DNA from: Candidatus Magasanikbacteria bacterium CG_4_10_14_0_2_um_filter_41_10 | Lineage (GTDB): Bacteria > Patescibacteriota > Patescibacteriia > Magasanikbacterales > UBA922 | DNA: 64,000 nucleotides | Assembly: GCA_002792995.1 (NCBI GenBank) | Contig: PFPJ01000055.1 | Span: 293 to 64,292 of the forward strand | Direction of reading: 5' to 3' | Shown here: in pieces, positions 8,045 through 56,390 of the stretch | Numbering within the stretch: position 1 is the first letter of the stretch | Layout: every line of letters starts with the position of its first letter | Position numbers and translations under genes: made by a program | The notes under the pieces: model-generated | Told to the model about the DNA's origin: nothing | Database searches by the model: none | Seen by the model: the letters and a program-made list of their open reading frames with translations, nothing else

Positions 8045-8057
8045 TCTGTCATGGTGA

Positions 8058-14692: not shown

Positions 14693-14730
14693 CGTTGTTC
14701 CGAGTATTTTTAGAGTAAACACGTACAAAC

Positions 14731-14760
14731 AAAAAAGAGTGGACATGCCACTCTTTTTTG
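14731..14760. terminator. Bidirectional terminator between the oxidoreductase and the methyltransferase genes
   Basis: AAAAAAGAGTGG-ACAT-GCCACTCTTTTTT. Confidence 0.5.
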
Positions 14761-14767
14761 TTTTATT

Positions 14768-15901: not shown

Positions 15902-15921
15902 AGTGGGCTATTCTGTCACTC

Positions 15922-16350: not shown

Positions 16351-16360
16351 AAAAATAACT

Positions 16361-18552: not shown

Positions 18553-18553
18553 A

Positions 18554-19678: not shown

Positions 19679-19746
19679 AAAACAGGCGTAGTAAACGCCT
19701 GTAGTATAACACACTTTATATATTGTTGTTACTATATTTTTGGGTG

Positions 19747-21480
19747 CTACTCTCTTGTGACGCGCAATACTTCTTCGATACTCGTCATTCCTTGTTTTGC
19801 TTTAATCAGACCATCTTCAAGCATGGTAATCATCCCATTTTTGATTGCATATTCTTTGATTTGTGTTGCCGTCCCTCGATTGTTGATCAATTCAGCAACC
19901 CCTGCATCTACTTCAAGGATTTCATAAATACCAATACGTCCTTTATATCCACTTTGATCACACTTTCGACAGCCTGGAGAGCGGAAAAATTCCATAGCAG
20001 ATAGTTTTTTCTCGGCAGTTTTGAGTTTGATATCGTGTTCAGTAAAGAGTTTGATGGCCGTACGGACATCAACCAATTTTTGCAATTCTTTTACTGCCGG
20101 TGCGTCGAGTTTGAAAGGGGTACGACAGTGATCACAGAGTCGTCGTACCAAACGCTGGGCAATGATGATATTTGCGGTAAAAGCGATCAAAAATGGAGGA
20201 ATGCCCATATCCATAAGACGTGGCAATGTGGTTGGGGCATCATTTGTATGGAGTGTCGAAAGCACGAGATGCCCTGTCATAGCTGCATGCATAGCAATCT
20301 CCGCAGTTTCTTGATCACGAATTTCTCCTACCATGATAATGTCTGGATCTTGGCGCAAAAATGCTCTGAGACCAGATGCAAAACTAAAACCAACACGTGG
20401 ATTGATCTGACTTTGATTGATGCCGCCGACATGGTATTCAATAGGATCTTCAATTGTTGAAATATTTACATTTGGTTGGTTCAAAATACCAAGCACAGAA
20501 TACAACGTTGTTGTTTTTCCACTTCCTGTTGGCCCTGTTACGAGTACCATACCGTGTGGTCTTTGGATAGCAGCATCCACCAATTTTCGGGGTCCTGGGA
20601 GAAAACCAAGTTGATCGAGTGTTAATGGTTTTTGTCCTTCGTGAAGAACACGCATAACTATTTTTTCTCCATCATACACAGGGATAATAGATACACGAAA
20701 TGCCAGTTCTTCTTCGTTCACTTCAATTTTGAATCGTCCATCCTGTGGAAGCATGTGTTCATCTATTTTGAGGTTGGCAAGAATTTTGATACGTGCGGTG
20801 ATGCCATTGCGTACTTGCGTAGGGAGGTGCATCACTGAATGAAGCATTCCGTCTACACGATATCTGACAGAAACATCTTTTTCTGTTGGTTCTATGTGAA
20901 TATCACTCGCATCTTGAAAAATAGCGTGTTCTAGAATACTTTTGACAATATTGATAATAGGAAGTTCCTCCGCTGCTTTTTTGAGTTCTTCTGGTTTATA
21001 GTTTTTTGTTTGCTTTGATGTCACCCCTGCGAGCTTCAATTCTTCTTCGAGACCCGCACGATAGAAACGAAGTGCACGTTTGATACTGCTTGGTGTGGCA
21101 AGAGAAACTGCTGGGATAAGGCCTGTTTTTCTCCTCATGAATTCAATCGTTTGGATATCAAGAGGATCAATCATTGCCAGGTAAATCGTATCTTTTGTTT
21201 TTTCAAATGCAATGATGTAGTGCGTTTCAGCGAGTGGCTGAGGGACAATAAGGAGTGTGTCTCTGGGAATTTCTTTTTCAGTCAAATCTACCAGTGGCAC
21301 GTCCATTTCCTTGCTCAAATATGCATAGAGTTCTTTTTCTTTTACAACCCCATCCTCAATGAGAGATAGTTCTAGTCTTTTTTCTGATGTTTCTGCGTTT
21401 GCTTTGAGTTCCTCAATTTTGGCAGGTTTCATCTTTTTTACCTCAGTCAGGTATGTGGTGATAATATCTTTTGGAAACAT
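19747..21480 (-). CDS. pilB: Type IV pilus assembly ATPase PilB (GspE family)
   Basis: Walker A VLVTGPTGSGKTTTLY, Asp and His boxes, tetracysteine CDHC...CRKC, and an N-terminal GspE-N domain. Confidence 0.9.
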   Translation of the reverse strand: MFPKDIITTYLTEVKKMKPAKIEELKANAETSEKRLELSLIEDGVVKEKELYAYLSKEMDVPLVDLTEKEIPRDTLLIVPQPLAETHYIIAFEKTKDTIYLAMIDPLDIQTIEFMRRKTGLIPAVSLATPSSIKRALRFYRAGLEEELKLAGVTSKQTKNYKPEELKKAAEELPIINIVKSILEHAIFQDASDIHIEPTEKDVSVRYRVDGMLHSVMHLPTQVRNGITARIKILANLKIDEHMLPQDGRFKIEVNEEELAFRVSIIPVYDGEKIVMRVLHEGQKPLTLDQLGFLPGPRKLVDAAIQRPHGMVLVTGPTGSGKTTTLYSVLGILNQPNVNISTIEDPIEYHVGGINQSQINPRVGFSFASGLRAFLRQDPDIIMVGEIRDQETAEIAMHAAMTGHLVLSTLHTNDAPTTLPRLMDMGIPPFLIAFTANIIIAQRLVRRLCDHCRTPFKLDAPAVKELQKLVDVRTAIKLFTEHDIKLKTAEKKLSAMEFFRSPGCRKCDQSGYKGRIGIYEILEVDAGVAELINNRGTATQIKEYAIKNGMITMLEDGLIKAKQGMTSIEEVLRVTRE

Positions 21481-22295: not shown

Positions 22296-22730
22296 ATGGA
22301 TCTCAATCGTGCAACCATCCTCGGGCGTTTGACTCGAGACCCGGAAATTCGTTCTACGACGAGTGGCAAAAGTGTTGCGACACTCAGTGTCGCTACCAAT
22401 CGTGTCTGGTCAGATCAGTCTGGACAAAAACAGGAACAGGCAGAATTTCATACCTGTGTCCTCTGGGGAAAACTCGCTGACATCGCAGGCCAATATCTGA
22501 GTAAGGGCCGACGTGTCTATGTAGAAGGACGTATCCAGACTCGTGATTGGGCTGGCAATGACGGTGTAAAACGATACCGTACGGAAATTGTTGCAGACAA
22601 TCTCATCATGCTCGATGGAGCACGTGGAACCGGTGCACCATCTATGGGTGGAAACGATGACGACAGTCAGCCACCTATTGATGACAATGATAGTGCCGAC
22701 GAAATCAAAGTAGAGGACATCCCATTTTAA
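22296..22730 (+). CDS. ssb: Single-stranded DNA-binding protein
   Basis: OB-fold signature, a Gly/Asp-rich linker, and the C-terminal acidic tip ...DIPF. Confidence 0.9.
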
Positions 22731-23039: not shown

Positions 23040-23424
23040 TTTAGTATGCACCTCGGTCCGGACGGGTGACACAGTGCTCATGTTCAGTGAGCCGCTGTGT
23101 TCCCGTCCGGACCTTGGTTTCGTGACGCTTGTCATGGGTGAAGTCGCCTCAGCGACTCAACACCCGCGCATCACACGGCATCTCGCCGTTCATCTGAGTG
23201 CATTTCGCACCCAGGTGGGGTGCTACTCCTATCCGGCGCGATTGTTTGGTCGGGGGAGCCGACAGTTCTTCATGCGCCCGCCGGTGATGTACTGGAACTG
23301 GCGGCGGGGCTGGCTGTGCTTCGAGACGGGAAGCATGGCGGCTCTCCTCGGTTTGAGAAAAGAAAAAAGGCGGCACTGTACCCCCTCTTCATATCTATAG
23401 TATACACATGGTGTATGTTTTTTA
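23040..23424 (+). ncRNA. Unidentified GC-rich structured RNA candidate, or a decayed GC-rich insertion, with its own terminator
   Basis: About 60% GC over 360 nt in an AT-rich setting. It contains a perfect 12-bp inverted repeat GGTCCGGACGGG...CCCGTCCGGACC enclosing nested hairpins, plus further hairpins such as GGGTG-AAGTCGC-CTCA-GCGACT-CAA-CACCC. The only ORF is a 128-aa Arg/Trp-rich frame. A plus-oriented terminator (ATACAC-ATG-GTGTAT + TTTTTT) lies at 23402-23423. I could not find the RNase P CR-I motif, a tmRNA T-arm or tag ORF, or a convincing SRP domain IV. Confidence 0.3.
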
Positions 23425-31848: not shown

Positions 31849-31958
31849 AGAAAATATATAATACAGTATTCATATCATACCGCAATTTTGTATCATTGTA
31901 TATCTAAAAAACACAAGGGAGCTGCTGGTGCAACTCCCGTTTTCAAGCGCGTAGTGCG

Positions 31959-32447
31959 CTACTCCTTGTGTTCGTCGTCGAAGGTGATGTTGATGGATTT
32001 TATGCCGCGGTAGCTGCGGCTGATCTCCACGCCATCACGGTACGTGACCGTGAACTTCGTCTGGTACCAGAGCTGGCCCACCTGTTGACGGTGGTCCTTG
32101 CACTTGTCGTACCAAACCTTGCCTCTGAGCTTGTCAGAGACCCTGTATCCGAGCGTGGAGTCGTACCACGAGATCGTGACCTCGTAGGATTCGTCCACCA
32201 TCACGGGGTCAGCCTGCAGGCCCCCGCCCATCTTGGCGCCGGCGTTGCCGTTGCCTGGCAGCTCGATCAAAAGATCTGGCTTGCTCGGCGTGTAGACCGC
32301 GCTCTCCACTCGGACGGTGAGTGGGGTGTCGGCGTCGACGAGTACGTTCTCTACTGTTCTGCCACCCCACATGACAGACATCAGAACGATGAATGCGGCA
32401 GCGAGTGCCACCGCAGAAATCGTCAAGAGAAGAATCATCTTGTTCAT
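31959..32447 (-). CDS. GC-rich hypothetical membrane-anchored protein; probable horizontally acquired singleton
   Basis: Start at MNKMILLLTISAVALAAAFIVLM with a GAGGGGG RBS, about 60% GC. Two hairpins (AGCGC...GCGCT and GGGAG...CTCCC + T-run) follow the stop codon. Confidence 0.5.
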   Translation of the reverse strand: MNKMILLLTISAVALAAAFIVLMSVMWGGRTVENVLVDADTPLTVRVESAVYTPSKPDLLIELPGNGNAGAKMGGGLQADPVMVDESYEVTISWYDSTLGYRVSDKLRGKVWYDKCKDHRQQVGQLWYQTKFTVTYRDGVEISRSYRGIKSINITFDDEHKE

Positions 32448-32622
32448 GGAGCCCCCTCGGATAGGCATTTTTGTGTATCTTCGAGCGGCATGACGATAGC
32501 ACAAAACATCCCTTTGGTAAAGGGATGTTGGTGTTTGTTGGACAAAGTTCGAATGTATTTAGTATAAAAGAGTTGTGACGTCTTCTCTGCTTTCCATTCA
32601 TGAAACTCATGTTTAAATACTT

Positions 32623-38939: not shown

Positions 38940-40004
38940 TTATTCTTCATTCACATCCATTTTCACACCCGGTTTCTTTTCTTCTTCATCTGGCGCTGCA
39001 CCGCGCTTTACTGCTGCCCAGATATCTTTTTCAATCGTTTTCATGAGTTTTGGATTTTCACGGAGATACGTTTTTGCTTTTTCACGTCCAACTCCAAGCT
39101 TTTCTTCTTTATAACTGTAGCTATTGCCAGATTTGTTGACTACTTTGTATTGAATACCGGTATCTATCAGATCTCCTGAGACAGAAATACCTTCGTTATA
39201 CATGATATCAAATACCGTTGTTCGAAATGGTGCAGCTACTTTATTTTTTACAATTTTTGCTTTCACACGATTTCCAATAACCGTATCACCTTGTTTGATT
39301 TGTGCACTTCTGCGAACTTCTATACGAACTGAACTATAAAATTTCAATGCATTTCCTCCAGTCGTTGTTTCTGGATTGCCAAAAAACACACCAATCTTCA
39401 TACGTGTCTGATTGATGAAAACAACTACGGTTTTGCTTTTACTTACGATACCTGTGAGTTTTCGGAGGGCCTGGCTCATAAGGCGAGCTTGGAGTCCCAT
39501 GTGGGAATCTCCCATTTCTCCTTCAATTTCTGCCTTTGGTACAAGCGCCGCCACAGAATCAATCACGACGACGTCCACGGCATTGGATCGGACGAGTGTC
39601 TCCAAAATTTCCAAGGCTTGTTCTCCTGTATCTGGCTGAGAAATAAGCATGTCTTTTATCTGGACACCAATTTTTTTCGCATATTCAGGATCGAGTGCAT
39701 GTTCTGCATCAATGAATGCTGCAATACCACCTTCTTTTTGTACTTCTGCAATGATGTGCTGTGCAAGGGTGGTTTTTCCACTTGATTCTGGTCCAAAAAT
39801 TTCAATAACGCGCCCACGGGGGACGCCTCCAATACCAAGGGCAATATCGAGTGAAATAGATCCTGTAGAGACAGCATCGACATCAGAATTTGGTGTTTCA
39901 CCAAATTTCATGATGGCATTATCGCCATACTTTTGCTTGATTTGCTCGATGGCACTTTCGGCTGCCTTCAGTTTTCCTGCTCGTTCATCTGTAGATGTTG
40001 ACAT
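38940..40004 (-). CDS. recA: Recombinase RecA
   Basis: Walker [11 protein letters not shown] plus L1/L2 loops and overall identity to RecA. Confidence 0.95.
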
Positions 40005-40852: not shown

Positions 40853-43273
40853 TTAATAAAACATTTTATTTCCACCACGTGCAGGTTTTTCTTCCTCTTC
40901 CTCTTCCTTCTGTTCTTCAAGGTCATCTTCTTTTACGTTTTCTTCACTTTCATCTAACGTTTCATCTCCATATTCTTCATACGTATCCTCTGCTTCTTCC
41001 TCTACTGTATCACTTTCTTCACCATCAAACACATTATACTCTTGTCCCATGCCCATTGTACTCGGTACTTGTTTTTCTGTCACTAATATTTCTCGAGGTT
41101 TTGCACCATCTGCTGGACCAATGATGCCAGCTTCTTCAAGTTCATCAAGAATGCGTGCCGCACGAGCATATCCTACACGAAGACGACGTTGGAGAAAAGA
41201 TGCACTTGCTTTACTCGCTTCAAGGATAGCTTCTTGTGCATCATTATAGAGAGGATCTTGATCATCTGCTGGACCACCAAACATACTTGCTGTTCCATTT
41301 TTTTGTTTTTGTATGATGGATTCATCATATGTTGGTTTTTCCCCACCTTTGAGGTAGGCAACCACATTTTTCATTTCTTCTTCTGTAATAAAGGCTCCTT
41401 GAATACGAACAGGTTTGCTCAGTGCTGCTGTAGAAAAAAGCATATCTCCGCGTCCAAGAAGTTTGTCTGCACCAGCACAATCGAGAATTGTTCGTGAATC
41501 AGTCACCGATGCTACCGAAAAAGCAATACGGCCAGGAATATTTGCTTTCATAAGACCGGTAATGACATCAACACTCGGACGTTGTGTCGCGAGAATAAGA
41601 TGGATGCCTACGGCGCGAGCCATCTGTGCAAGACGGATAATACCAGCTTCCACTTCATTGCTTGCGGTTGCCATGAGATCCGCAAGCTCATCGATAACAA
41701 AGACAAGATATGGAATTTTTGTTTGAGGATGCATGTCATTGTACGTATTGATATCTCTATTTCCTGCTTTTGAAAGCAATTCAAATCGTCGATCCATTTC
41801 TCCGATGGTCCACTTGAGTGCATTCACTGTATCTTGTGAATTGGTAATGACTGGTGTGAGAAGATGGGGAATACCATTGTACAGTGTAAGTTCGACTCGC
41901 TTTGGGTCGATCATGATGAAGCGAAGTGTCTCTGCTGTATTTTGAAAGAGCAGTGACATGATAATGGTGTTTACACATACAGTTTTTCCAGATCCTGTCG
42001 CTCCTGCTACCAAAAGATGTGGCATTTTTGGTAGATCGGCCACCCAAATTTTTCCACCGACATCTTTTCCCAGCGCAAACATCATGTCGTGGGGACGTGC
42101 GGCATATTCTTTTGATTCGAGGAGTTCTTTGAAAGAAACCATCGCTGTTTTTTCATTTGGAACTTCAATACCGACCAGCGATTTCCCTGGAATTGGTGCC
42201 TCGATGCGGATAGGATGAGCAGCGAGCGCAAGTGCGAGGTCATTGGACAGCGCAGTAATTTTTGAAATTTTTACTCCTTTTGCTGGTTTGAGAGAATACT
42301 GGGTTACCGTTGGTCCTACCCGTACTTCCCCCATGTCTACATCAATATTAAATTCAGCCAATGTATTTCTAATAACAGCTTCATTGGATTTGATATCACC
42401 ACTTGTCGGTTTTGACTTGCTCGTTCGGAGTAGTGAAATTTTTGGTGGCGTTTTGATAACCACATGTTTCGCCCAGTCTGGTATTTCATCTTGTGCATGC
42501 ACAACGTGCGTTTTTGGTGTACGGTGTGCTGGTGTTTCTGTCTCGTCTTCTTCCTCTTCGTCATCATCATACATTTCTTCCTCTTCTTCTGAATCTTCAT
42601 CCTCTACATCAATATTTCGTGCTGCAAAACGTCTGTCATGTGGTGATGATTCTGTGTCTTCTTCATCCTCATAGGGATCTTCTTCCTCTTCTTCATCGCT
42701 CCCTTGAGCATTGACTTGTTGTCTGACAAAATCTCCCACGAACCCGAGACCTGCGAGTATTTTTTTGTGGAGAGAAAAGAAATGCAAAATTGCCGTATTG
42801 AATAAGAGAATAAGAGAAACAAGAGCAAGGCCAATCAATAAGATAATACTTCCTATTGCACCAAGATATGTTTTGAGTGGCCACGCAAGCATGCCAAAAA
42901 TACCACCACCATGACCTGCCAGCGCTTGTCGCCACATATCATCAGCACCAAATTGCATATGCATCAGACTGGACAATGTCAGAAAGAAGAGGACTGCACC
43001 GATACCATGTGTGGGGCGATAGTCGTAGCGATTATCTTTGAGGACAAACCATGTAAATATGAGGAGAATGAGTGGGGTCGCAAATCGCATGGAGCCAAAC
43101 AAAAAAGCAAGGATCCATTCGTTCAATATCACGCCCACAGTACTTGCGGCATCAAAAAAACTCAGTGTAATAATGAGAGCAAACATAACAAGAAGGATGG
43201 CAATAATCCCTCGTGAAAGTGTTGGGTCAAAGTTTGATTCGATGTGCTGTTTTTTGCGTGCCATAGCGTTCAT
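40853..43273 (-). CDS. ftsK: DNA translocase FtsK/SpoIIIE with an acidic low-complexity C-terminal tail
   Basis: N-terminal TM domain, an acidic linker, a motor domain with Walker A VAGATGSGKTVCVN, and a gamma domain. Confidence 0.9.
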   Translation of the reverse strand: MNAMARKKQHIESNFDPTLSRGIIAILLVMFALIITLSFFDAASTVGVILNEWILAFLFGSMRFATPLILLIFTWFVLKDNRYDYRPTHGIGAVLFFLTLSSLMHMQFGADDMWRQALAGHGGGIFGMLAWPLKTYLGAIGSIILLIGLALVSLILLFNTAILHFFSLHKKILAGLGFVGDFVRQQVNAQGSDEEEEEDPYEDEEDTESSPHDRRFAARNIDVEDEDSEEEEEMYDDDEEEEDETETPAHRTPKTHVVHAQDEIPDWAKHVVIKTPPKISLLRTSKSKPTSGDIKSNEAVIRNTLAEFNIDVDMGEVRVGPTVTQYSLKPAKGVKISKITALSNDLALALAAHPIRIEAPIPGKSLVGIEVPNEKTAMVSFKELLESKEYAARPHDMMFALGKDVGGKIWVADLPKMPHLLVAGATGSGKTVCVNTIIMSLLFQNTAETLRFIMIDPKRVELTLYNGIPHLLTPVITNSQDTVNALKWTIGEMDRRFELLSKAGNRDINTYNDMHPQTKIPYLVFVIDELADLMATASNEVEAGIIRLAQMARAVGIHLILATQRPSVDVITGLMKANIPGRIAFSVASVTDSRTILDCAGADKLLGRGDMLFSTAALSKPVRIQGAFITEEEMKNVVAYLKGGEKPTYDESIIQKQKNGTASMFGGPADDQDPLYNDAQEAILEASKASASFLQRRLRVGYARAARILDELEEAGIIGPADGAKPREILVTEKQVPSTMGMGQEYNVFDGEESDTVEEEAEDTYEEYGDETLDESEENVKEDDLEEQKEEEEEEKPARGGNKMFY

Positions 43274-43420
43274 GCTCTATTGTATCATATTTTGGTAATT
43301 AGTAACTAGTGATTTGTAATACGCAAATGCATATACTTCTTAACATGTAGCATAATTTTTCAATCTTTTTTTGCGAAAGCAAAAAATAGTCTTAGCGAAG
43401 CAAAATCTTTCGTTGTATAT

Positions 43421-43528
43421 AAAAAAGCACGTTGGTATATAACGTGCTTTTTTCAAAGTTTCTTCTCAGCAATCTTGATGTTCAAGATCGTAGTTGAAGG
43501 GTCGACGCATGAGCAGGTTGCGTCGACC
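43421..43528 (-). repeat. 3' boundary module A of the GC-rich gene 43574-44362: GC hairpin, CCTTCAACT, conserved 26-mer, AT-hairpin terminator (minus-strand sense)
   Basis: Forward AAGCACGTT-GGTATAT-AACGTGCTT, then TTTTTTCAAAGTTTCTTCTCAGCAAT (43448-43473), AGTTGAAGG (43492-43500), and GGTCGACGCA-TGAGCAGGT-TGCGTCGACC (43500-43528). Confidence 0.5.
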
Positions 43529-43573
43529 AGGTTGTTGGTTGTGTGGGGATGACCTCCTGTCAGGTCGGGATGG

Positions 43574-44362
43574 CTACGGCGCGCAGAGCGCCGAGGAGTA
43601 CTCGTGCTCGCAGACCTCCATGTCCGCGTTGCACGTGTCGATGGTGCACGGGTCACCGTCGTTGCAGTTCGAGAGATCGGGGCGGCAGGTGGCGCCCAGC
43701 CCGCCCGGGTCCTCGACGCACCCTTCGACCGTGCAGCCTGCCTCGCAGTCCTGCGTGATGGGGACTTCGCCGCAGACCACCTCCGTGCAGGTGGGGCTGA
43801 AGGCGACGAAGTCACCAGCTTCGTCGCAGTACGGCTTCGAGGTCGCCGTGCAGTCCGTGTAGGTCTCGCACTGCGGTGACTCGGGGCAGACAGCGTCGGC
43901 CGCGAGGAACATACACACGCCGTAGGTGCTGTTGCCCGGCAGAGGGACGCACCTGGGCGAGAAGCTCACGAGAGCTTCGCCCACCTGTTGCCCGATGCTG
44001 TCGTTCGAGCAGTCCATGTCGGACGCGCAGAGGCCCGTGGTGGGCAGGAAGGTGAACCTCGGCGACGCCAGATCGAGGGCGCAGCCCCCGGTCTCGCCGT
44101 TGCAGGTGAAGCCGTCGCCGCAGTCGACCACTGCGTACTCGCAGTGGCCGGACCTCGACCACCAGTTCCACCAACTGAGGTCGGCGCTGCAGCGCGACTG
44201 GTGGATGCACTTCGACCCCGTCGTGGGGTCAATGGTGCACTGACCGTCGTTCCGGCAGGTCGTCGACGACTGCTGCCAGACCAGGATTCCACCACCCCCG
44301 GCCAGCGCAGGGCTCGGGATGAAGAAGATGAGGGCCAACAAGAAGGCCAAACGGATCAGCAT
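43574..44362 (-). CDS. GC-rich (~65% GC) cysteine-rich secreted protein (262 aa, about 34 Cys)
   Basis: AGGAGAG RBS and signal peptide MLIRLAFLLALIFFIPSPALA. The mature region is full of Cys/Asp/Gly repeats (DPCTIDTCN, CGDGFTCNGETGGC) and has a WWNWW patch. Confidence 0.6.
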   Translation of the reverse strand: MLIRLAFLLALIFFIPSPALAGGGGILVWQQSSTTCRNDGQCTIDPTTGSKCIHQSRCSADLSWWNWWSRSGHCEYAVVDCGDGFTCNGETGGCALDLASPRFTFLPTTGLCASDMDCSNDSIGQQVGEALVSFSPRCVPLPGNSTYGVCMFLAADAVCPESPQCETYTDCTATSKPYCDEAGDFVAFSPTCTEVVCGEVPITQDCEAGCTVEGCVEDPGGLGATCRPDLSNCNDGDPCTIDTCNADMEVCEHEYSSALCAP

Positions 44363-44474
44363 GGGTCACTCTCCTGACGCATGCAACTTCTCTACCTAGA
44401 ACATCCAGGTATAAGAAGTTGCTCGGGAACGTGTAAAAAAACTGGACGAATCCAGCTCTTTACTTCTGCCCAAG

Positions 44475-44503
44475 GTTTAGCACAACATAGCATTTTTGTC
44501 AAT
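44475..44503 (-). promoter_or_regulatory. Promoter-like element for gene 43574-44362; near-duplicate of the element at 45975-46004
   Basis: Minus strand TTGACAAAAATGCTATGTTGTGCTAAACC, 24/29 identical to the copy upstream of gene 44661-45833. Confidence 0.4.
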
Positions 44504-44510
44504 TTGTTGT

Positions 44511-44626
44511 TGTGAAAAAAACACCTTGCTAGGTGTTTTTTCAAAGTTTCTTCTCAGCAATTTCAAACAATCTTGAAATAACAGTTGAAGGGGCGACGCA
44601 GCAGTGAAGTTCACTGCTGCGTCGCC
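44511..44626 (-). repeat. 3' boundary module B of the GC-rich gene 44661-45833; same architecture as module A
   Basis: AACACCT-TGCTAGG-AGGTGTT hairpin, identical 26-mer TTTTTTCAAAGTTTCTTCTCAGCAAT (44536-44561), AGTTGAAGGGG (44583-44593), and GGCGACGCAGCAG-TGAAGTTCA-CTGCTGCGTCGCC (44592-44626). Confidence 0.5.
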
Positions 44627-44660
44627 TGGGTTGAGCCCCCACGTAGGGGCGGTTGAGAGG

Positions 44661-45833
44661 TCAGGGTTGGGACTGACACGACGCGATGTCCCACTGACAG
44701 CTCGCGTCGATCGTGCCCTGGACGCTCACGTCGCCGTAGATCGAGACGTGCCCCGCGGTGCCGTTTGGACCGGCGATGAAGACGTCGCCGTTTACGGTCA
44801 GGGCGTTTTCGTCCTGGTTGACGTTTGCCGCGGAGAAGCCGCCGTAGGTGGCGAACTTGGCGCCCTCGACCTTGGCGAACCACTTGTTGTCGTCTGGGCT
44901 CTGGACGAAGCTGATGAATTGCGACGCGTGGTCGAGCCAGGTCAGCTTAACCTGGTTGAGGTAGCCAGGCATCGAGACGATGCCGTTGACATGCATGCCC
45001 ATGTTGCCGATGAGAGCTTGGGCCGTCTCAGCCGTGCTACCCCCGAACCGTGAATCGTGCTTCACCAGTAGGTCATGGTTCACGGTGACGTCCTGAGCGA
45101 AATCGGCGCTGTTTGCTGTGATGCTTCCGCCGACGGTGAGATCGCCAACCAGGTAGCTTCCCTCCGAAGCTTGGAGGTAGCTAGTCACCAGCTGGTCGCT
45201 TGCATACACGTTCGACGTGTGAATACCGTCGTCCGTCAGGACGGAGAACCAGGAGCTCCCGTCGAAGTTGTAACTGAGATGAAGCTTCGGACTGACCTGC
45301 TGGATCCATTCGACGTCGGTCGCGTTGAGGTAGTACTCGTGGACGTCGCCGTTCTTGAGGCCGAGCATCCCCACATGCGCGACGCCCTGCACCCAGGAGT
45401 CGATGAACGACCCCATGTCTGCGGAGACGTACTGTGCCATGACGCGGCCCGCCTGGAGCTGGTTCGGGCCCATGTCGACGTCCTTGTTGATGTACAAGTG
45501 ATCGTCGAACGGGTTGGGCGTATCAGCACCGACGATCGTGAACGTCTCCGTCAGCAGTGCGAGCTTCTGCTTCAGCTCTGCCACCTTCGTGTTGAGCTCG
45601 CTGTTCATGGTCGTGTAGAACAGCCGCTCACCCTCCATGGCCTGGACACGGCCCTCGAGCTGGTCGAGGCGCTGAGTGAACTGGTCGATCTCTGTCGAAT
45701 CGTCGACCACGGGCTGCTGGTCGCCGGCGCAGCTCAGGTTCAGGCTGAGCAGCACGAGGAAGGGGAGGACGATGAGGAAGCGGACGAGGAAGGAACGCTC
45801 ACGAGGAGCGTCGGGGTCATTGAGGCGGTTCAT
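44661..45833 (-). CDS. GC-rich lipoprotein with an N-terminal coiled coil and a beta-rich C-terminal domain (about 390 aa)
   Basis: Start chosen at MNRLN (45833), which has a GAGAGGG RBS; the alternative MFRSRGN start is at 45854. Lipobox LSLNLSCAG, then a coiled coil (IDQFTQRLDQLEGRVQAMEG...KVAELKQKLALL), then a Gly/Ser/Val-rich domain with a C-terminal CQWDIASC. About 62% GC. Confidence 0.6.
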   Translation of the reverse strand: MNRLNDPDAPRERSFLVRFLIVLPFLVLLSLNLSCAGDQQPVVDDSTEIDQFTQRLDQLEGRVQAMEGERLFYTTMNSELNTKVAELKQKLALLTETFTIVGADTPNPFDDHLYINKDVDMGPNQLQAGRVMAQYVSADMGSFIDSWVQGVAHVGMLGLKNGDVHEYYLNATDVEWIQQVSPKLHLSYNFDGSSWFSVLTDDGIHTSNVYASDQLVTSYLQASEGSYLVGDLTVGGSITANSADFAQDVTVNHDLLVKHDSRFGGSTAETAQALIGNMGMHVNGIVSMPGYLNQVKLTWLDHASQFISFVQSPDDNKWFAKVEGAKFATYGGFSAANVNQDENALTVNGDVFIAGPNGTAGHVSIYGDVSVQGTIDASCQWDIASCQSQP

Positions 45834-45974
45834 GTTCCCTCTCGATCTAAACATGCATTCATCACCCCCAGACCATCTGGAAGTAATTTCAACATGTTTT
45901 GTGGCTTGAACTTGGAAAAGAGCAGAAAGCAGGACGAATGTCCTACCCTCAATTTCTCAGCCAAAAAGACGTCC

Positions 45975-46004
45975 GTATATAGCACAAATGAGCCTTTTTG
46001 TCAA
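45975..46004 (-). promoter_or_regulatory. Extended -10 promoter for gene 44661-45833
   Basis: Minus strand TTGACA-AAAAGGCTCATTTGTGC-TATATA (TG at -14). Confidence 0.45.
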
Positions 46005-46178
46005 GCTACCCTGTTCAAAAATAGCCTGCAGGGCGCAACCCGCCGGATAGGCGGGTGAAGCCCTGGGGATAACCCTAGGGATAACCTATGGAGCTGCCCC
46101 TAGTGAAGAAAATAGAATTTTGCTAAAATAAGCAAAAAAACGTCAGTTCTTGACAAATAGTTATACACGTGATTCAAC

Positions 46179-46207
46179 TTGACTTTTCTCTCTATACACT
46201 ATATAGT
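46179..46207 (+). promoter_or_regulatory. Sigma70-like promoter TTGACT-17-TATAGT for rpoBC, followed by a 14-bp palindrome and a ~330-nt leader
   Basis: TTGACT at 46179-46184 and TATAGT at 46202-46207. The palindrome ACACTATATAGTGT overlaps the -10 element. Confidence 0.45.
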
Positions 46208-46540: not shown

Positions 46541-49500
46541 ATGCCAATCTACAAGCGACAGAAGACCACGGTGGCAGAACGAAAGTTCTTCACCCCGCTC
46601 AAGAGCGCGATCGAAGCGCCCGATCTCATTGAGACGCAAAAAGCGTCGTACAATTGGTTTTTTGATATTGGTATCAAAGAACTTTTTGAAGAAATTTCTC
46701 CAGTGAAAGATTTTACTGGTCGAGATCTGGAATTGTACTTCGAAGATTATACTATCGATGAGCCCAAGTTTGATGAAGTGGTCTGTCGTGAAAAAAATGT
46801 TACATTTGAAGCTCCGCTTCGTGTAAAAGTTCGTTTGATAAATAAGCGTACAAAAACAGAAGATGTCCAAGAGATTTATCTTGGTGACGTTCCCATCATG
46901 ACTGATCGTGGAACATTTATGGTCAACGGTATTGAGCGTGTGGTGGTATCACAGCTTATCCGAAGTGCAGGTGCCTTTTTTACAGAAAGTACGGTCCGTG
47001 GCCGAAAATATTATGGCGCAAAAATTATTCCAAACCGTGGTGCCTGGATAGAAATTGAAACAGACCAAAACAATGTTATTTGGGTAAAAGTGGATAGAAA
47101 ACGAAAAGTTGCAGCGACATCATTGTTGAGAGCATTTGGAATGAGTGCTGATGAAGATATTATCAAAGCATTCGAAGGTGTGAATACGCATCCAAATATT
47201 GATTACATAGAAGCAACCATTAAAAAAGATGCTGCAGAAAATGAAGATGACGGATTGATCGAAGTCTACAAACGTATTCGTCCAGGTGATCTCGCAACGT
47301 CTGACAATGCAAAGAGTCTCATCCACTCAATGTTTTTCAACTTTGACCGGTATGATTTTGGTCGAGTCGGTGTATACAAATTGGATAAAAAATTTGAACT
47401 TGGTCTTTCTGGTGGCGATTATGACCAAAAAGAACAGCGTGTGTTGTCCCTTGATAAACTTCTTTTGGTATTGAAGGAAGTAGTTCGTTTGAACGTGACA
47501 CAAGAAGATGCTGACGATATCGATCATCTTGGAAATCGTCGTATTCGAGCGGTAGGGGAACTCGTCCAAAACAGATTCCGTGTTGGGCTTGCTCGTATGG
47601 AACGTATCATTCGTGATCGTATGAGTACATACGAACTCGAAAGTCTCGCACCAAATAAACTTATCAACGCACGACCTGTGATCGGAGCAATTCGTGAATT
47701 CTTCATGAGTTCACAGCTGTCTCAGTTCATGGACCAAGTGAATCCACTCGCAGAACTCGAGCACAAACGTCGTGTTTCAGCTCTTGGACCTGGTGGTCTT
47801 TCTCGAGACCGTGCCGGATTTGAAGTTCGTGATGTTCATACAACCCATTACGGTCGTATCTGTCCGATTGCAACACCAGAAGGACCAAACATCGGTCTTG
47901 TTGGACATCTTGCAAGTTATGCAAAAATTAATAGCTTTGGATTTGTAGAAACACCATATAGAAAAGTAGCAAAGAATGTGCCAAACCAAGCGCGCTTTAC
48001 AGAAGGTGAATATTTGCAAGAGGACGTGTCTGGTATTGGAAAATCAGGTGAACAAATTTCAAAAGACATGGCAAAGAAGCTGGAGGGAAAGACAGATATG
48101 GAAACCGTATCAGTCATGCCACGTGTGACAGACGAAATTGTATACCTCAATTCATTTCAAGAAGAAAAAGTTACAACAGCGAGTGCGACAACGAGCATGA
48201 ATGAACATGGTATCCTCATAGGAGAACGTATTCCTGCCCGTGTGCATGGCGAACCAAGTACGGTGTCTGCAGGAGATATTGAATATATTGATGTTGCCTC
48301 AAATCAGATTTTGTCTGTTGCAACAAGCATGATTCCATTTCTCGAACATGACGATGCGACTCGTGCGCTCATGGGAACAAACATGCAACGTCAAGCCGTC
48401 CCATGTATTCAACCAGATTCTCCACTCGTAGGGACTGGCATGGAAAAAATTGCTGCAGAAAATAGCGGACATATTTTGTTTGCTGATGAAGATGGAGAGG
48501 TCACTGCAGTCGATAGTAGCATGGTACAGATTACGGATAAAAATAAAAAAATATACACGTATCCTCTCAACAAATTTGTTCGATCAAACGCATCGAGTTC
48601 TATCAATCAGCGTCCTGTTGTTACACTTGGAGAAAAAGTTAAGAAAGGACAGGCACTGTGTAACGGACCAAGTATCGATAATGGTGAGCTCGCTCTTGGA
48701 CAAAATGTCCTCGTCGCATACATGGTATGGGATGGATACAATTATGAAGATGCTATTATCATTTCAGAACGTATCGTACAGAAAGATAGATATACATCCA
48801 TTCATGTCGAAGACTACGCAACAGATGTTCGAGAAACAAAACTTGGCCCAGAACTTGTCACGAGCGATATTCCAAACGTGAGTGAAGAAAAATTGAAAAA
48901 TCTTGATACCGAAGGTGTTATTCGTGTTGGTGCGGAAGTTCATTCTGGTGACATCTTAGTTGGAAAAATTACTCCAAAAGGAGAAACAGAATTGACACCA
49001 GAAGAGCGATTGCTTCGTGCCATTTTTGGAGAAAAAGCTCGCGATGTTCGTGATTCATCACTCTACCTTGAGCATGGAGAACATGGAAAGGTAACAGATA
49101 TTCGTGTCTTTTCTGCAGACGAAGGAGACAAGTTGCAACCTGGTGTGATCAAGCAAGTCCAAGTCACTGTCGCAGACATGAGAAAACTTCAAGTCGGTGA
49201 TAAAATGGCAGGACGACATGGAAACAAAGGTGTTATTTCTCGCATTGTATCAGTAGAAGACATGCCGTTCCTTGAAGATGGAACACCTGTTGATATTATT
49301 CTTTCTCCACTCGGTGTTATTTCTCGTATGAACTTGGGGCAATTGCTCGAAAGTCATCTTGGTCTCGCAGCAAATGCGCTCGGGTATCGTGCAGCAACAC
49401 CAGTGTTGAATGGAATTACAGAAGCACAAATCAAAGAAGAATTGACAAAGGCTGGATTCCCAACAGATTCACAGTCGCAACTCTATGATGGACGTACTGG

Positions 49501-49951
49501 TGAACCGATGGATCACAAGACCACTGTTGGATACAATTACATGCTCAAGCTCAACCACATGATCGAAGACAAAATGCACCAACGTTCTATTGGTCCATAC
49601 AGTCTTATTACACAGCAACCACTCGGTGGAAAGGCGCAGTTTGGTGGACAACGTTTCGGAGAAATGGAAGTGTGGGCACTCGAAGCATACGGTGCCGCGC
49701 ATTCATTGCAAGAAATTTTGACGATCAAATCCGATGATGTGCCAGGACGAAGCAAAGCATACGAAGCAATTATCAAAGGAAACCCAATCACCCGTGTCAA
49801 CTTACCAGAATCATTCAATGTTTTGGTACGAGAGTTGAAGGGTCTTGCCCTCGATGTAAAACTTATGAAACAAGTCGGTGATGTATACATCCCAGCTGAC
49901 GAAATACCAAAAGTCGAGTCAGCTTCAGACTACATGGAGAATGAAGAGTAG
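46541..49951 (+). CDS. rpoB: DNA-directed RNA polymerase subunit beta
   Basis: 1136 aa; conserved RpoB regions throughout, for example GDKMAGRHGNKGVIS and the rifampicin-region motifs. Confidence 0.97.
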   Translation: MPIYKRQKTTVAERKFFTPLKSAIEAPDLIETQKASYNWFFDIGIKELFEEISPVKDFTGRDLELYFEDYTIDEPKFDEVVCREKNVTFEAPLRVKVRLINKRTKTEDVQEIYLGDVPIMTDRGTFMVNGIERVVVSQLIRSAGAFFTESTVRGRKYYGAKIIPNRGAWIEIETDQNNVIWVKVDRKRKVAATSLLRAFGMSADEDIIKAFEGVNTHPNIDYIEATIKKDAAENEDDGLIEVYKRIRPGDLATSDNAKSLIHSMFFNFDRYDFGRVGVYKLDKKFELGLSGGDYDQKEQRVLSLDKLLLVLKEVVRLNVTQEDADDIDHLGNRRIRAVGELVQNRFRVGLARMERIIRDRMSTYELESLAPNKLINARPVIGAIREFFMSSQLSQFMDQVNPLAELEHKRRVSALGPGGLSRDRAGFEVRDVHTTHYGRICPIATPEGPNIGLVGHLASYAKINSFGFVETPYRKVAKNVPNQARFTEGEYLQEDVSGIGKSGEQISKDMAKKLEGKTDMETVSVMPRVTDEIVYLNSFQEEKVTTASATTSMNEHGILIGERIPARVHGEPSTVSAGDIEYIDVASNQILSVATSMIPFLEHDDATRALMGTNMQRQAVPCIQPDSPLVGTGMEKIAAENSGHILFADEDGEVTAVDSSMVQITDKNKKIYTYPLNKFVRSNASSSINQRPVVTLGEKVKKGQALCNGPSIDNGELALGQNVLVAYMVWDGYNYEDAIIISERIVQKDRYTSIHVEDYATDVRETKLGPELVTSDIPNVSEEKLKNLDTEGVIRVGAEVHSGDILVGKITPKGETELTPEERLLRAIFGEKARDVRDSSLYLEHGEHGKVTDIRVFSADEGDKLQPGVIKQVQVTVADMRKLQVGDKMAGRHGNKGVISRIVSVEDMPFLEDGTPVDIILSPLGVISRMNLGQLLESHLGLAANALGYRAATPVLNGITEAQIKEELTKAGFPTDSQSQLYDGRTGEPMDHKTTVGYNYMLKLNHMIEDKMHQRSIGPYSLITQQPLGGKAQFGGQRFGEMEVWALEAYGAAHSLQEILTIKSDDVPGRSKAYEAIIKGNPITRVNLPESFNVLVRELKGLALDVKLMKQVGDVYIPADEIPKVESASDYMENEE

Positions 49952-53944: not shown

Positions 53945-54683
53945 AATACTTTGTATGTCAGGACATTCACGATGGAGTAAAATTCAGCACAAAAAAGGGA
54001 AGGCTGACGCACAGCGGGGAAATTTGTTTACCAAATTGTGTAAGGCCATTACCATGGCAGCAAAAGATGGTGGAGGCGATGCAGAAATGAATTTTTCGCT
54101 TCGTCTTGCGATAGAAAAAGCAAAAGGTGGAAATGTCCCAAAAGACAATATTGAACGTGCCATCAAGCGTGGAACTGGGGAACTAAAAGATGGTGAAGAA
54201 ATTCAAGAAGTACTGTACGAAGGATATGGCCCAGGTGGCATTGCCGTACTTGTCGAAACATTGAGCGACAATAAAAATAGAACTGTCTCCGAAGTAAAAA
54301 ATGCATTTACCAAAAATGGTGGTTCTCTCGGGAGTCTTGGAAGTGTGCAGTGGCAGTTTGAACGACAGGGAGTAGTGATTTTGGGTCATGCCCAAGTATC
54401 CATATCAAAAGATGATCTCGAACTTGCCTTGATAGATGCCGGAGCGTCAGACATTCTTGAGTTTGATGAACATCTCGAAGTACGTTGTCCAATGGATAAG
54501 TTTCAATCTGTGGTGGAGGCATTGAAAACATGTGGTGTTGGTGAACCCGAAGATGCTGGACTCAAGTGGGTCGCAAAAGAAGAGGTCGGCGTGGACGATG
54601 GCATTGCAGAAAAAATGGAAAAATTATATGATGCGCTTGATGAGCTCGACGATGTAAACGAAATTTATACAAATGAAAAATAA
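53945..54683 (+). CDS. YebC/PmpR family transcriptional regulator
   Basis: MSGHSRWSKIQHKKGKADAQRGNLFTKL... matches the YebC N-terminus. The ATG is at 53945; the track ORF starts earlier in frame. Confidence 0.9.
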
Positions 54684-55155
54684 ATCACAACGCATTCTCG
54701 GTATCGACCCGGGCTATGGTCGCATTGGGTATGGTGTTATTGAAGGTGCACGTGGTGCGTGGGTACATGTGGCACATGGGTGTATCGAAACAAATACCAA
54801 AGCAGATTTTGCAGAGCGACTTGTGGAGCTGAAACAAGATCTCCTTTCAATATTAGAAAAATATCAGCCGGATAAAGCAGGCATCGAACAATTATTTTTT
54901 GCAAAAAATGTAACAACAGGAATGAAAGTAAGCGAAGCGCGTGGCGTTATTCTTCTTACCTTGCATGAAGCAGGTGTTCAGGTGCAGGAAGTCACGCCAC
55001 TACAGATGAAGCAAGCGATCGTTGGGTACGGTCGTGCAGAAAAAGGACAACTTCAGGAAATGATTCGTATTCAATTACTTTTGAAAAAACGCCCTACGCC
55101 AGACGATGCTGCCGATGCGTTGGGTGTTGCGTTGACGGCAGGACTGTTGTTTTAG
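54673..55155 (+). CDS. ruvC: Holliday junction resolvase RuvC
   Basis: ILGIDPGYGRIGYGVIE and the catalytic acidic residues. It overlaps the yebC stop codon, consistent with the yebC-ruvC operon. Confidence 0.9.
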   Translation: MKNKSQRILGIDPGYGRIGYGVIEGARGAWVHVAHGCIETNTKADFAERLVELKQDLLSILEKYQPDKAGIEQLFFAKNVTTGMKVSEARGVILLTLHEAGVQVQEVTPLQMKQAIVGYGRAEKGQLQEMIRIQLLLKKRPTPDDAADALGVALTAGLLF

Positions 55156-55355: not shown

Positions 55356-56054
55356 ATGAACACGACGGCAACGAGTGCTACTGTCCAGAAGGACGATCTT
55401 CAGCTGCTTCGGGCAGCGTTTCATATCGCCTTCCACATCATCGCCATCAGCCTTGTTGCTTCACGCGAGGTGTCTGATGAGGTAATTGATCAGGTTTTGG
55501 ATATCGCGTGGAAGGCTGTGGTTGTGGCAGAAATCTTCATGATTTCTGGGTACCGGATGTCGCAGAAGTGTGACAACTGGTATACGAAGGCGTTTGCCTG
55601 GTTCCACAAGTACATTGCAAGGTACCTCATACGACCAAAAGAGTATGGAAAACCTACCGCTATGACTACGTATGTCCTCGGACTCGTAGTAATTCGCCTG
55701 GGGCTTGCTGTCCCGGTGATCGAGTGCCTGTACATAATGGCGATCCTGTCATGGGGAGATCCTTTTGCAAGGATTGGGGGGATCAAGATCAAGGGGCCTT
55801 ATCTGCCCTTCAGGAAGAAGGCCAAGAAGACCTGGGCTGGATTCTTGACATTCTTCTTTGTGTCGACGGTGGTGGTTGTGATTCAGGATGTCGTTCTGAT
55901 AGATGTTGGAATGCTGACTCTGACTACGGTGCCTGCCATTGCCCAAATCGTCGCGGTCTTTGCCGGTGCGTTCGCCGAGGCGTACGCCCCATTCGCTGAT
56001 AATTTCTTCATCACGCTGGTGGCATACGGAGGGTATGCCGTCGTCATGGGGTGA
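55356..56054 (+). CDS. GC-rich polytopic membrane protein with a CTP_transf_1-like (CdsA / dolichol-kinase family) KTWxG motif
   Basis: AGGAGGG RBS, about 58% GC, 6-7 TM segments. Motifs KKAKKTWAGF and a C-terminal ...FADNFFITL. The canonical CdsA HGG...DR motif is not seen. Confidence 0.45.
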   Translation: MNTTATSATVQKDDLQLLRAAFHIAFHIIAISLVASREVSDEVIDQVLDIAWKAVVVAEIFMISGYRMSQKCDNWYTKAFAWFHKYIARYLIRPKEYGKPTAMTTYVLGLVVIRLGLAVPVIECLYIMAILSWGDPFARIGGIKIKGPYLPFRKKAKKTWAGFLTFFFVSTVVVVIQDVVLIDVGMLTLTTVPAIAQIVAVFAGAFAEAYAPFADNFFITLVAYGGYAVVMG

Positions 56055-56124
56055 AGAGATTCAAGGAGAAACACGCCGCCCCGCACGGCGTAAAACGCGG
56101 GACGAGCGCCAAGGCGAGCAGGCC

Positions 56125-56313
56125 ATGCGGAGCATGGAGCCTGCGGTGAGGCAACGCCTGAAGCGTGAGATGGGGGAGATCTATGATTGCCCCCTGAACT
56201 GTCGTTGTAAGAACCCGCTCTGGGACTGCACAAGGCAGCCGAAGCCGTCGTTCTACGACGACTACGAGTTCGAGGACTTCGAGTTGGAGTTCCTCGACGG
56301 CCTCAACGGTTAA
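56125..56313 (+). CDS. Small GC-rich hypothetical protein (62 aa) with four Cys residues and an acidic C-terminus
   Basis: MRSMEPAVRQRLKREMGEIYDCPLNCRCKNPLWDCTRQPKPSFYDDYEFEDFELEFLDGLNG. Weak RBS. It is followed by a GC-rich terminator. Confidence 0.3.
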   Translation: MRSMEPAVRQRLKREMGEIYDCPLNCRCKNPLWDCTRQPKPSFYDDYEFEDFELEFLDGLNG

Positions 56314-56319
56314 GGAGAA

Positions 56320-56358
56320 ACGCCGCCCCTCTGGAAGAAGGGCGGCGTTCGTGTTTTT
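56320..56358 (+). terminator. Rho-independent terminator
   Basis: ACGCCGCCC-CTCTGGAAGAA-GGGCGGCGT followed by TCGTGTTTTT. Confidence 0.5.
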
Positions 56359-56390
56359 GGCTACTATTAGCCAAACTATGTTCTCTCCCA

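Follow-up and report, generated by a model that had tools for sequence, protein, structure and literature searches.

A putative recombination hotspot of the minimal mobile element type, with a conserved structured expression frame, between rpoB and ftsK of Candidatus Magasanikbacteria

The minimal mobile elements (MMEs) of Neisseria, reportedly described by Saunders and Snyder in 2002 and by Snyder and colleagues in 2007, are the known systems that best resemble the locus examined here, the spacer between rpoB and ftsK in a 64,000-nucleotide (nt) window from Candidatus Magasanikbacteria bacterium CG_4_10_14_0_2_um_filter_41_10 (assembly GCA_002792995.1, contig PFPJ01000055.1, positions 293 to 64,292). 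All coordinates are those of the window unless a related locus is named, C1 and C2 are the two cargo open reading frames (ORFs) in the spacer, and L-numbers denote related loci and the lineages that carry them. The MME definition, as quoted in PMC3082526, fits the rpoB-ftsK locus, and for Patescibacteria both horizontal transfer and genomic islands are on record in general terms (PMC12455944). Full-text literature searches returned no description of this particular arrangement. The best-supported view is that the locus is an MME-like hotspot, newly distinguished by a conserved structured frame around its cargo genes.

Both cargo genes look compositionally foreign. C1 has 66.7% GC and C2 60.9%, in host DNA that is 41.7% GC outside the island; the sequence-only reading, which had described GC-rich genes in a genome of about 38% GC, was therefore right about the genes and too low for the host. 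GC content at third codon positions (GC3) is 0.90 for C1 and 0.85 for C2 versus 0.31 to 0.33 for host genes (ftsK, recA, and rpoB), and the codon-position values (GC1/2/3 of 0.54/0.56/0.90 for C1 and 0.61/0.38/0.85 for C2) show that the annotated frames are the coding ones. The two proteins share no detectable similarity, in agreement with the earlier claim that their coding sequences are unrelated.

The same reading had proposed that each gene carries a copy of one promoter-like box upstream and of one module downstream (GC hairpin, 26-mer, and AT-rich terminator), and both duplications are confirmed (Table 1). The promoter box occurs twice in the window within three mismatches (0 expected), and the 26-mer is present in exactly two identical copies 1,088 bp apart (0 expected). 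Pairing is perfect in the GC hairpins at 43501-43527 and 44592-44626, and each hairpin is followed by CCTTCAACT within an 18-nt core, TGCGTCGnCCCTTCAACT, which contains the 3' arm of each hairpin and is 94% identical between the units. Fifty-four comparisons with randomly chosen host intergenic regions served as a baseline, and the two 3' modules clearly exceed it, with 65% identity (baseline mean 45%, maximum 58%) and a shared exact word of 26 nt (baseline 10 or less). For the 5' scaffolds the excess of identity is only modest (55%; baseline mean 45%, maximum 58%), but they have a covarying leader stem-loop in common. A third, more diverged promoter copy postulated upstream of ftsK does not hold up, since it is 44 to 47% identical to the C1 and C2 promoter boxes (P1 and P2) against a baseline of 48% and is absent within three mismatches; the bare 9-mer AGTTGAAGG is likewise unenriched (13 matches versus 16.5 expected). 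Covariance models give the window copies 103 to 124 bits for the 3' module and 71 to 114 bits for the leader (70.9 bits for the C1 leader with leader model R2), both copies being in the training sets, and nothing in the rest of the window scores above 24 bits.

Comparison with relatives shows a locus whose content varies around a constant frame. An FtsK scan recovered 67 related loci, and rpoB and ftsK are divergent neighbors in the window and in most of the Magasanikbacteria loci among them; the divergent arrangement of the pair holds throughout the phylum. The spacer ranges from about 430 bp, empty and AT-rich, to about 3.7 kb; it is short, empty, and AT-rich in L011, L013, L017, L020, and L025 and carries differing GC-rich ORFs in L008, L012, L016, L054, L072, and L117. 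With empty, single, and multigene spacers all represented, the proposal of a variable, cassette-like locus is upheld. In the three sister lineages (L008, L009, and L010; FtsK 85 to 87% identical to that of the window) the same noncoding frame holds one cargo, so that the window has one promoter-cargo-terminator unit more. The cargo is a 404-amino-acid (aa) C2-like protein in L008 (35% identical to C2 by tblastn) and a 378-aa allele in L010 (27% by tblastn); in L009 the ORF has collapsed in frame to 47 aa with all noncoding elements kept. The L009 remnant (about 9041-9185 of that locus) is a signal peptide followed by QCNAQP and a stop codon, an "empty" frame with promoter, leader, and full 3' module, and the collapse possibly occurred by deletion at a GTCG microhomology. 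In L010, an IS30-like transposase (HTH_38 plus rve; positions 1-912, minus strand) abuts the cassette promoter and stands where other lineages have rpoB-side spacer sequence; the contig ends inside it.

The more distant L117 has GGTTATCC repeats, a promoter, and a leader, and then three GC-rich genes, coding for a C2-family member, an unrelated 229-aa lipoprotein, and a PNP_UDP_1 enzyme. One copy of the 3' module stands behind gene 1 and another behind gene 2, and the GC hairpin behind gene 2 is almost identical to that of C1. The third cargo, a GC-rich (0.65) nucleoside phosphorylase gene at 3365-4207 of L117, has its own promoter, and it is the best handle on the donor lineage because it is the only cargo at the locus with a recognizable enzyme family. 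Diverged versions of the 3' module lie within the same spacer of L016 and L054; a 284-aa ORF of L016 was considered as a C2-family member and dropped (20% identity, poor alignment). The frame belongs to the cassette, being conserved with it in L008, L009, L010, and L117, and is not a duplicated promoter-proximal part of the ftsK leader, as had been suggested.

Fourfold degenerate sites of FtsK differ by 47 to 60% among the four sister lineages, corresponding to about 0.9 substitutions per site, and between orthologues the 3' module is 76 to 84% identical and the leader 70 to 81%. Judged from these alignments, the frame appears to be under constraint and structured. The consensus fold of the 3' module comprises stem-loops SL0, SL1, and SL2 and an intrinsic terminator, with SL2 enclosed by CUUC/GAAG pairing of two conserved blocks, the GAAG of the 26-mer and the CUUC of the core. 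In six related sequences, whose alignments are also those from which the structures were derived, 92.5% of the cells of the 3' module are paired versus 43 to 53% when partners are slid, its covariation score is reached by none of 500 shuffles, and five pairs of the SL2b stem (helix 3) have changed on both sides. The leader, predicted to form a long stem-loop and a second hairpin ahead of the ribosome-binding site, has 87.6% of its cells paired (41 to 57% slid) and 12 pairs changed on both sides (4.6 ± 1.7 in shuffles); the C1 leader aligns and covaries with the C2-type leaders. The leader stem-loop (GGCUGAGAAAUUGAGGG, about 45940-45955) and the 26-mer (UUGCUGAGAAGAAAC, 43448-43473 and 44536-44561) share an 8-mer, GCUGAGAA. 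A known RNA family was sought and rejected: with Rfam 15, only three tRNAs reach gathering scores in the window, and the cassette region has only subthreshold matches to generic hairpins. The frame presumably acts at the level of RNA, its 5' and 3' stem-loops serving stability or regulation and its strong terminators insulating ftsK; a role at the DNA level is also possible.

The second unit of the window is best understood by alignment with the single unit of L008. In that alignment (A1), the L008 module is at first collinear with the GC hairpin proximal to C2; at the 18-nt core the collinearity switches to the C1-distal half, and it continues into the ftsK leader. The two 3' modules of the window are 83% and 81% identical to the L008 orthologue and only 65% to each other, and because paralogues are less alike than each is to its orthologue, a recent in situ duplication is excluded. 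Together with the 55% identity of the 5' scaffolds, these values contradict the idea that the scaffold was duplicated locally at each insertion. The 5' frames of the window are as diverged from each other as L117 is from the sister clade, and half-module a (SL2a and SL3a) has no orthologue in the sisters; SL3a has no counterpart in L008, L009, or L010, and its stem matches the L016 type. The identity of 26-mer copies a and b suggests local homogenization.

We regard it as probable, though well short of assured, that the rpoB-ftsK spacer of the Magasanikbacteria clade is an MME-type recombination hotspot with a conserved structured expression frame. The frame would consist of a sigma-70-like TGn promoter, a 5' leader with a long stem-loop, a ribosome-binding site, and a structured 3' untranslated region (UTR) made up of a GC hairpin, a small hairpin closed by CUUC/GAAG, and an intrinsic terminator. 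Unrelated GC-rich ORFan genes with predicted secreted or lipid-anchored products would occupy it, and recombination inside the frame would exchange, mosaicize, remove, or add cargo, with DNA uptake from other lineages as the most likely source step. In the window, a diverged incoming frame carrying C1 would have recombined with the resident C2 unit at the core, by a Campbell-type single crossover or an unequal crossover between arrays, adding a unit of about 1,091 bp (43492-44582). The recombination is presumably homologous and not site specific, and the cargo genes probably code for surface proteins under diversifying pressure.

Alleles of the C2 family are mosaics, being most similar between the window and L008 at the N terminus (72 to 79%), between L008 and L010 at the start of the coiled coil (63 to 73%), and between the window and L010 at the C terminus (46 to 52%), with a middle part at random nucleotide identity (45 to 53%). 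The blastn breakpoints vary from pair to pair, and such mosaicism is the pattern that homologous recombination among alleles would be expected to produce. The host neighborhood codes for a ComM-like Mg-chelatase-family ATPase, RmuC, PilM/PilC/PilB-like proteins, SSB, RecA, and RuvC, a toolkit for DNA uptake and recombination that is consistent with transformation-driven exchange.

Cargo GC3 is 0.84 to 0.90 in all lineages versus 0.3 in the host. With each lineage having undergone an estimated 0.45 or so neutral substitutions per site (from FtsK sites), such values cannot be old, so that the cargo has either been recently imported or been shielded from host mutation bias. The GC1/GC2/GC3 and amino acid profiles match those of high-GC Patescibacteria relatives and not those of the host, and the relatives compared have neither the frame nor cargo homologues. 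Four Patescibacteria loci from genomes of 57 to 62% GC (L043, L045, L048, and L050) have the same rpoB/ftsK synteny and are without scaffold and cargo homologues. It is a possibility that the extreme GC3 is kept up locally, for example by biased gene conversion at the hotspot, instead of being imported. For C1 and the C2 family, phmmer, word-index, and profile searches of 1.84 to 5.8 billion proteins return only members from the rpoB-ftsK locus: C1 has only self-matches among 5.8 billion proteins, and the C2 family has four matches among 1.84 billion representatives, all from this locus. Near-identical protein clusters contain only Magasanikbacteria contigs or are single-member Logan clusters. 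No Pfam or NCBIfam family scores above its curated cutoff for C1, C2, six other island ORFs, or the C2-like alleles, and the AlphaFold2 models are unusable, with a mean predicted local distance difference test score of 43 for C1 and 36 for C2; homology and structure prediction, which the sequence-only reading had put forward for both proteins, thus assign neither to a family. We note that public gene calls choose wrong-strand ORFs at this locus, of 129 and 91 aa over C1 (L006, 11457-12230) and of 327 and 149 aa over C2 (L001, 378-1832). Since GC islands are misannotated in this way in AT-rich metagenome-assembled genomes (MAGs), they are underrepresented in protein databases, which weakens ORFan conclusions drawn from protein searches alone.

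Several points weigh against a homologous-recombination hotspot, however. The crossover lies at an 18-nt core beside hairpins, which is short for RecA-dependent exchange and as a site-specific system would leave it, and the first entry of the unrelated ORF C1 into the frame is left unexplained. In the FtsK comparison L008 and L010 are closest, and the window lineage is not shown to be nested, and the change could have run in the opposite direction, with the single unit of the sisters arising by deletion between direct repeats. No donor is found in 1.84 to 5.8 billion proteins despite a GC3 too high to be old. The -10 hexamer of P1 is poor, and a role of the frame at the RNA level draws on structure and covariation in six related sequences.

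Of the alternatives, site-specific gene capture fares best, and we consider it unlikely. A recombinase encoded elsewhere would insert and excise circular single-gene cassettes at an attachment site made up of the GC hairpin, core, and small hairpin, maybe recognized as folded single-stranded DNA like attC. The extra unit is indeed bounded by the conserved 18-nt core adjoining hairpins, the GC-rich DNA stops exactly at the core, and each cargo has its own module copy in two independent arrays (the window, and genes 1 and 2 of L117). Moreover, the small hairpin in L117 lies between inverted CCTCAACT and AGTTGAG, like the R''/R' boxes of attC, and the SL1 stem GTCGACGC recurs behind unrelated cargo in distant lineages, with the stem after C1 nearly identical in L117 and L054. 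Yet the module is confined to one locus. Among 241 million metagenome records, the composite module has eight matches, seven at the rpoB-ftsK locus of sister lineages and one by chance; in IMG/VR the 26-mer has no match and the core pattern 34, all of them chance matches in coding sequence without a hairpin; and neither covariance model (R1 or R2) picks up anything similar in the remainder of the window or, beyond the spacer, in 648 kb of related loci. These searches rule out a dispersed mobile cassette family, and the module, for which a wider search had been proposed, is limited to the rpoB-ftsK locus in the records searched. There is no integrase or transposase among the 30 host ORFs scanned with Pfam and the called flanking genes (four ORFs at 59.9 to 63.5 kb were unscanned), as the earlier claim of none nearby had it for the ORFs tested. 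Furthermore, the R''/R'-like boxes of the window are imperfect (CTTCAAC versus GCTGAGAAG), L016 lacks CTTCAAC, the cassettes bring their own promoters and terminators, and the C2-family breakpoints are scattered, as homologous recombination gives. The fuller proposal, that the module is the attachment site of an undescribed, integron-like capture system of the candidate phyla radiation (CPR) with self-promoted cassettes and no adjacent integrase, whose recombinase, encoded elsewhere, loads surface-protein genes from a high-GC pool into the rpoB-ftsK slot, is a little more doubtful again.

In situ tandem duplication of a C2-type unit, with one coding region later replaced or diverged and the flanks partly diverged, seems improbable to us. 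The units do stand head to tail with a period of 1,088 to 1,091 bp, coding regions at this locus diverge far faster than flanks, and the 26-mers are 100% identical where orthologues differ at a few positions, which suggests local gene conversion. Set against these are the greater closeness of each module to its L008 orthologue than to its paralogue, the divergence of half-module a, P1, and the C1 leader, which is as large as that of a distant lineage, the lack of detectable similarity between C1 and C2, and the C1 GC3 of 0.90, which argues for recent arrival.

Two independent, ordinary horizontal acquisitions side by side, with flanks alike only through a generic host consensus, are very improbable and already contradicted by the baseline and covariance-model results. 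The promoter likeness is in part consensus (TTGACA and TGn; another host promoter reads TGTGCTATACT), the 5' scaffold identity, taken by itself, is no higher than random host upstream regions can show, and at least six other single-gene GC islands in the window each have a GC hairpin and an AT terminator. But the 3' modules have in common the 18-nt core and a 26-nt exact word that is longer than any in the baseline, their 65% identity exceeds the baseline maximum, the covariance scores lie far above those elsewhere in the window (the copies being in the training sets), and the frames are orthologous to those of L008, L009, L010, and L117.

An assembly or binning artefact, in which a GC-rich contaminant was fused to an AT-rich contig, is suggested by the abrupt change in GC content and can be set aside with near certainty, since seven contigs (JGI, ENA, Logan, and NCBI; different samples and, from the contig names, different assemblers), found by exact-protein lookup of both cargo ORFs, are 100% identical to the window through every GC/AT junction, and sister species show the same architecture. 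The joins are real and not chimeric. The window also matches contig PFBY01000036.1 of GCA_002773145.1, and its nearest relatives are MAGs named Candidatus Magasanikbacteria, a group of very small bacteria from groundwater.

Table 1. Features of the rpoB-ftsK cassette region and of the host genes around it (window coordinates)
Feature	Coordinates	Strand	Details
Host uptake and recombination genes named in the text	within 6394-7917, 8869-9993, 17455-21480, 22296-22730, 38940-40004, 54673-55155		
ftsK	40853..43273	-	Conserved flank downstream of cassettes; Pfam FtsK_4TM/alpha/SpoIIIE/gamma
Palindrome in ftsK leader	43366..43389	.	TTTTTGC-GAA-AGCAAAAA; conserved in ftsK leaders of L008, L009, L010
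SL3b, intrinsic terminator after C1	43421..43453	-	13-bp stem between A-run and T-run; inverted repeat I8, 100% complementary, -14.7 kcal/mol; orthologous to terminator of L008/L009/L010
26-mer copy b	43448..43473	-	ATTGCTGAGAAGAAACTTTGAAAAAA; exact duplicate, 0 expected
SL2b, short palindromic hairpin	43472..43488	-	ATCTTGA-ACA-TCAAGAT; stem covaries across copies and orthologues
Core copy b, 18 nt	43492..43509	-	TGCGTCGACCCTTCAACT; repeat D9, 94% identical to 44583-44600; one of the pair of repeats at the extra-unit junction; collinearity with L008 switches here
SL1(C1), GC-rich hairpin	43501..43527	-	GTCGACGCA...TGCGTCGAC; -17.5 kcal/mol
SL0(C1), small GC hairpin	43551..43566	-	Directly 3' of stop codon; -7.6 kcal/mol; positional counterparts with other stem sequences in C2, L009, L010
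C1, 262-aa Cys-rich secreted ORFan	43574..44362	-	GC 0.667, GC3 0.90, 27 Cys
Leader 1, 5' UTR	44363..44473	-	Stem-loop around CTGGA-UUCG-UCCAG; AGGAG ribosome-binding site
P1, promoter-like box	44474..44502	-	TTGACA-N17-(TGc)TAAACC; weak -10
SL3a, intrinsic terminator after C2	44515..44541	-	-12.6 kcal/mol; type differs from SL3b
26-mer copy a	44536..44561	-	Identical to copy b
SL2a, short palindromic hairpin	44561..44578	-	TTTCAA-N6-TTGAAA
Core copy a, 18 nt	44583..44600	-	TGCGTCGCCCCTTCAACT; second junction repeat of the extra unit
SL1(C2), perfect 17-bp GC hairpin	44592..44626	-	Inverted repeat I3, 100% complementary, -33.1 kcal/mol; orthologous in L008/L009/L010
SL0(C2), small GC hairpin	44635..44650	-	After stop codon; -11.5 kcal/mol
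C2, 390-aa putative lipoprotein	44661..45833	-	GC 0.609, GC3 0.85; lipobox-like LNLSC
Leader 2, 5' UTR	45834..45975	-	GAGAGG ribosome-binding site; long conserved stem-loop ~45900-45962, second hairpin 45858-45870; -22.5 kcal/mol; flagged terminator-like
P2, promoter-like box	45976..46004	-	TTGACA-N17-(TGc)TATATA; L008 orthologue TTGACA-17-TATATT
GC-rich patch	46005..46100	.	Compound hairpin 46029-46055 within CAGGGC/GCCCTG; tandem GGATAACC x2 at 46067-46086, conserved in L008, L009, L117
Palindromic 21-mer beside rpoB promoter	46119..46139	.	TTTGCTAAAATAAGCAAAAAA; conserved in L008, L009, L117
rpoB	46541..49951	+	Conserved flank on upstream side; own promoter-like site at 46179-46207

The predicted C1 protein begins with a signal-like helix that ends in ALA before GGGG and looks cleavable, and in C2 the LNLSC motif is followed by a coiled coil and a beta-rich C-terminal domain. 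A strict sigma-70 scan calls neither P1 nor P2 because their -10 hexamers (TAAACC and TATATA) fail its rule.

The features bordering the cassettes belong to the host spacer. The small bounding hairpins (TTTGC..GCAAA palindromes) and the GGATAACC patch had been read as the ends of the element; they are conserved in sister genomes, and one palindrome recurs at 10972. This is the 21-mer TTTGCTAAAATAAGCAAAAAA, which has an exact second copy at 10972-10992 (0 expected) ending 5 nt ahead of a gene for a TrmB-family regulator (10997-11746), while the other copy lies beside the rpoB promoter and the C2 unit. Both copies are at the upstream edge of a minus-strand GC island, and the 21-mer could be an operator for the TrmB-family regulator. 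In the GC-rich patch, just upstream of P2, the hairpin (ACCCGCC/GGCGGGT inside CAGGGC/GCCCTG) resembles the GC hairpins behind the cargo genes, and a GGTTATCC-N4-GGTTATCC repeat next to it is conserved in L008, L009, and L117; the patch may serve to bind a factor, or it may be what is left of a lost upstream unit or cassette 3' end. A replication origin was considered because GGTTATCC reads TTATCCACA, the DnaA-box consensus, in L008 and L117, and was rejected: DnaA-box-like 9-mers number 21 versus 19.2 expected, and GC skew is positive on either side of the locus with no minimum there.

At least six further single-gene GC islands are present in the window (about 1841-2500, 7981-8700, 10181-10860, 23041-23400, 31921-32460, and 55356-56380), with GC contents of 0.54 to 0.59 and mostly raised GC3 (up to 0.80), in spacers between housekeeping genes. 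Most code for ORFan proteins whose N termini carry hydrophobic or lipoprotein-like signals. No Pfam family matches any of them, the ones that were looked up occur in Magasanikbacteria contigs alone, and with the covariance models none shows the C1/C2 scaffold. Comparable GC islands are seen in other low-GC Magasanikbacteria loci. The neighborhood has another variable spacer, between recA and a SpoIID-like gene, where L008 carries a 2.6-kb insert of normal GC (14452-16712; ORFs of 209 and 531 aa) and the window about 60 bp.

CPR bacteria, or Patescibacteria, are thought to live attached to host cells, and surface proteins therefore probably decide host attachment and the avoidance of attack. 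Here, in a slot between two essential operons, turnover of the genes for secreted or lipid-anchored proteins would far outpace the evolution of the genome, while the frame around them stays conserved. If this is so, the locus offers a marker by which gene flow and surface differences between strains of uncultured Magasanikbacteria could be traced. It also offers a natural insulated expression frame, with RNA hairpins whose part in stability or regulation is accessible to testing. The compositional puzzle, a high cargo GC3 persisting across lineages about 0.9 neutral substitutions per site apart, points either to a gene pool of high-GC Patescibacteria that has escaped sampling or to a GC-favoring process acting locally.

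Among described systems, classical genomic islands are similar in their deviant base composition, patchy distribution, and ORFan content, but here the islands are of single genes, a tRNA target, an integrase, and a direct-repeat att site are all lacking, and the foreign composition is limited to the ORF and 3' hairpin within a host-like frame. The pilE/pilS system of Neisseria and vlsE of Borrelia likewise have conserved ends (promoter, leader, signal peptide, C terminus, and 3' UTR), a mosaic variable middle, and a product that is, as predicted here, a surface protein; in contrast, variation at the present locus is between lineages, and wholly unrelated genes (C1 and gene 2 of L117) use the frame. 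Silent donor copies of C1 and C2 are not evident in the 64-kb window, where tblastn and blastn return self-matches only.

Integron arrays, and the clusters of attC sites lacking integron integrases (CALINs), share the head-to-tail single-gene units and the folded, imperfectly palindromic module with short boxes after each ORF; the extra-unit junction falls at a conserved core, and no integrase is adjacent, as in CALINs. They differ in that there is no IntI and no tyrosine recombinase among the window ORFs tested, and that the window boxes (CTTCAAC and GCTGAGAAG) mismatch RYYYAAC/GTTRRRY by eye, only gene 1 of L117 having CCTCAACT/AGTTGAG. The units here have their own promoter, leader, and terminator, whereas integron cassettes are promoterless and served by a common promoter, and the module is confined to a single chromosomal locus of one clade, where integron sites are dispersed with many cargos.

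The MMEs come closest. As in MMEs, a conserved flanking gene pair (rpoB and ftsK) encloses whole-gene cassettes that differ between lineages, no mobility genes are found among the ORFs tested, and the cargo is compositionally atypical; exchange of MMEs is attributed to homologous recombination in an uptake-equipped host. For homologous recombination, the present locus has no mobility gene among the ORFs tested, scattered mosaic breakpoints, and a junction in shared sequence, with a core of just 18 nt. The differences are that the host is a CPR bacterium in which exchange by transformation and recombination is inferred, that the cargo consists of strongly GC-rich ORFan genes for secreted proteins, and that an internal structured frame of promoter, leader, and 3' UTR is repeated with each cargo gene, giving tandem arrays.

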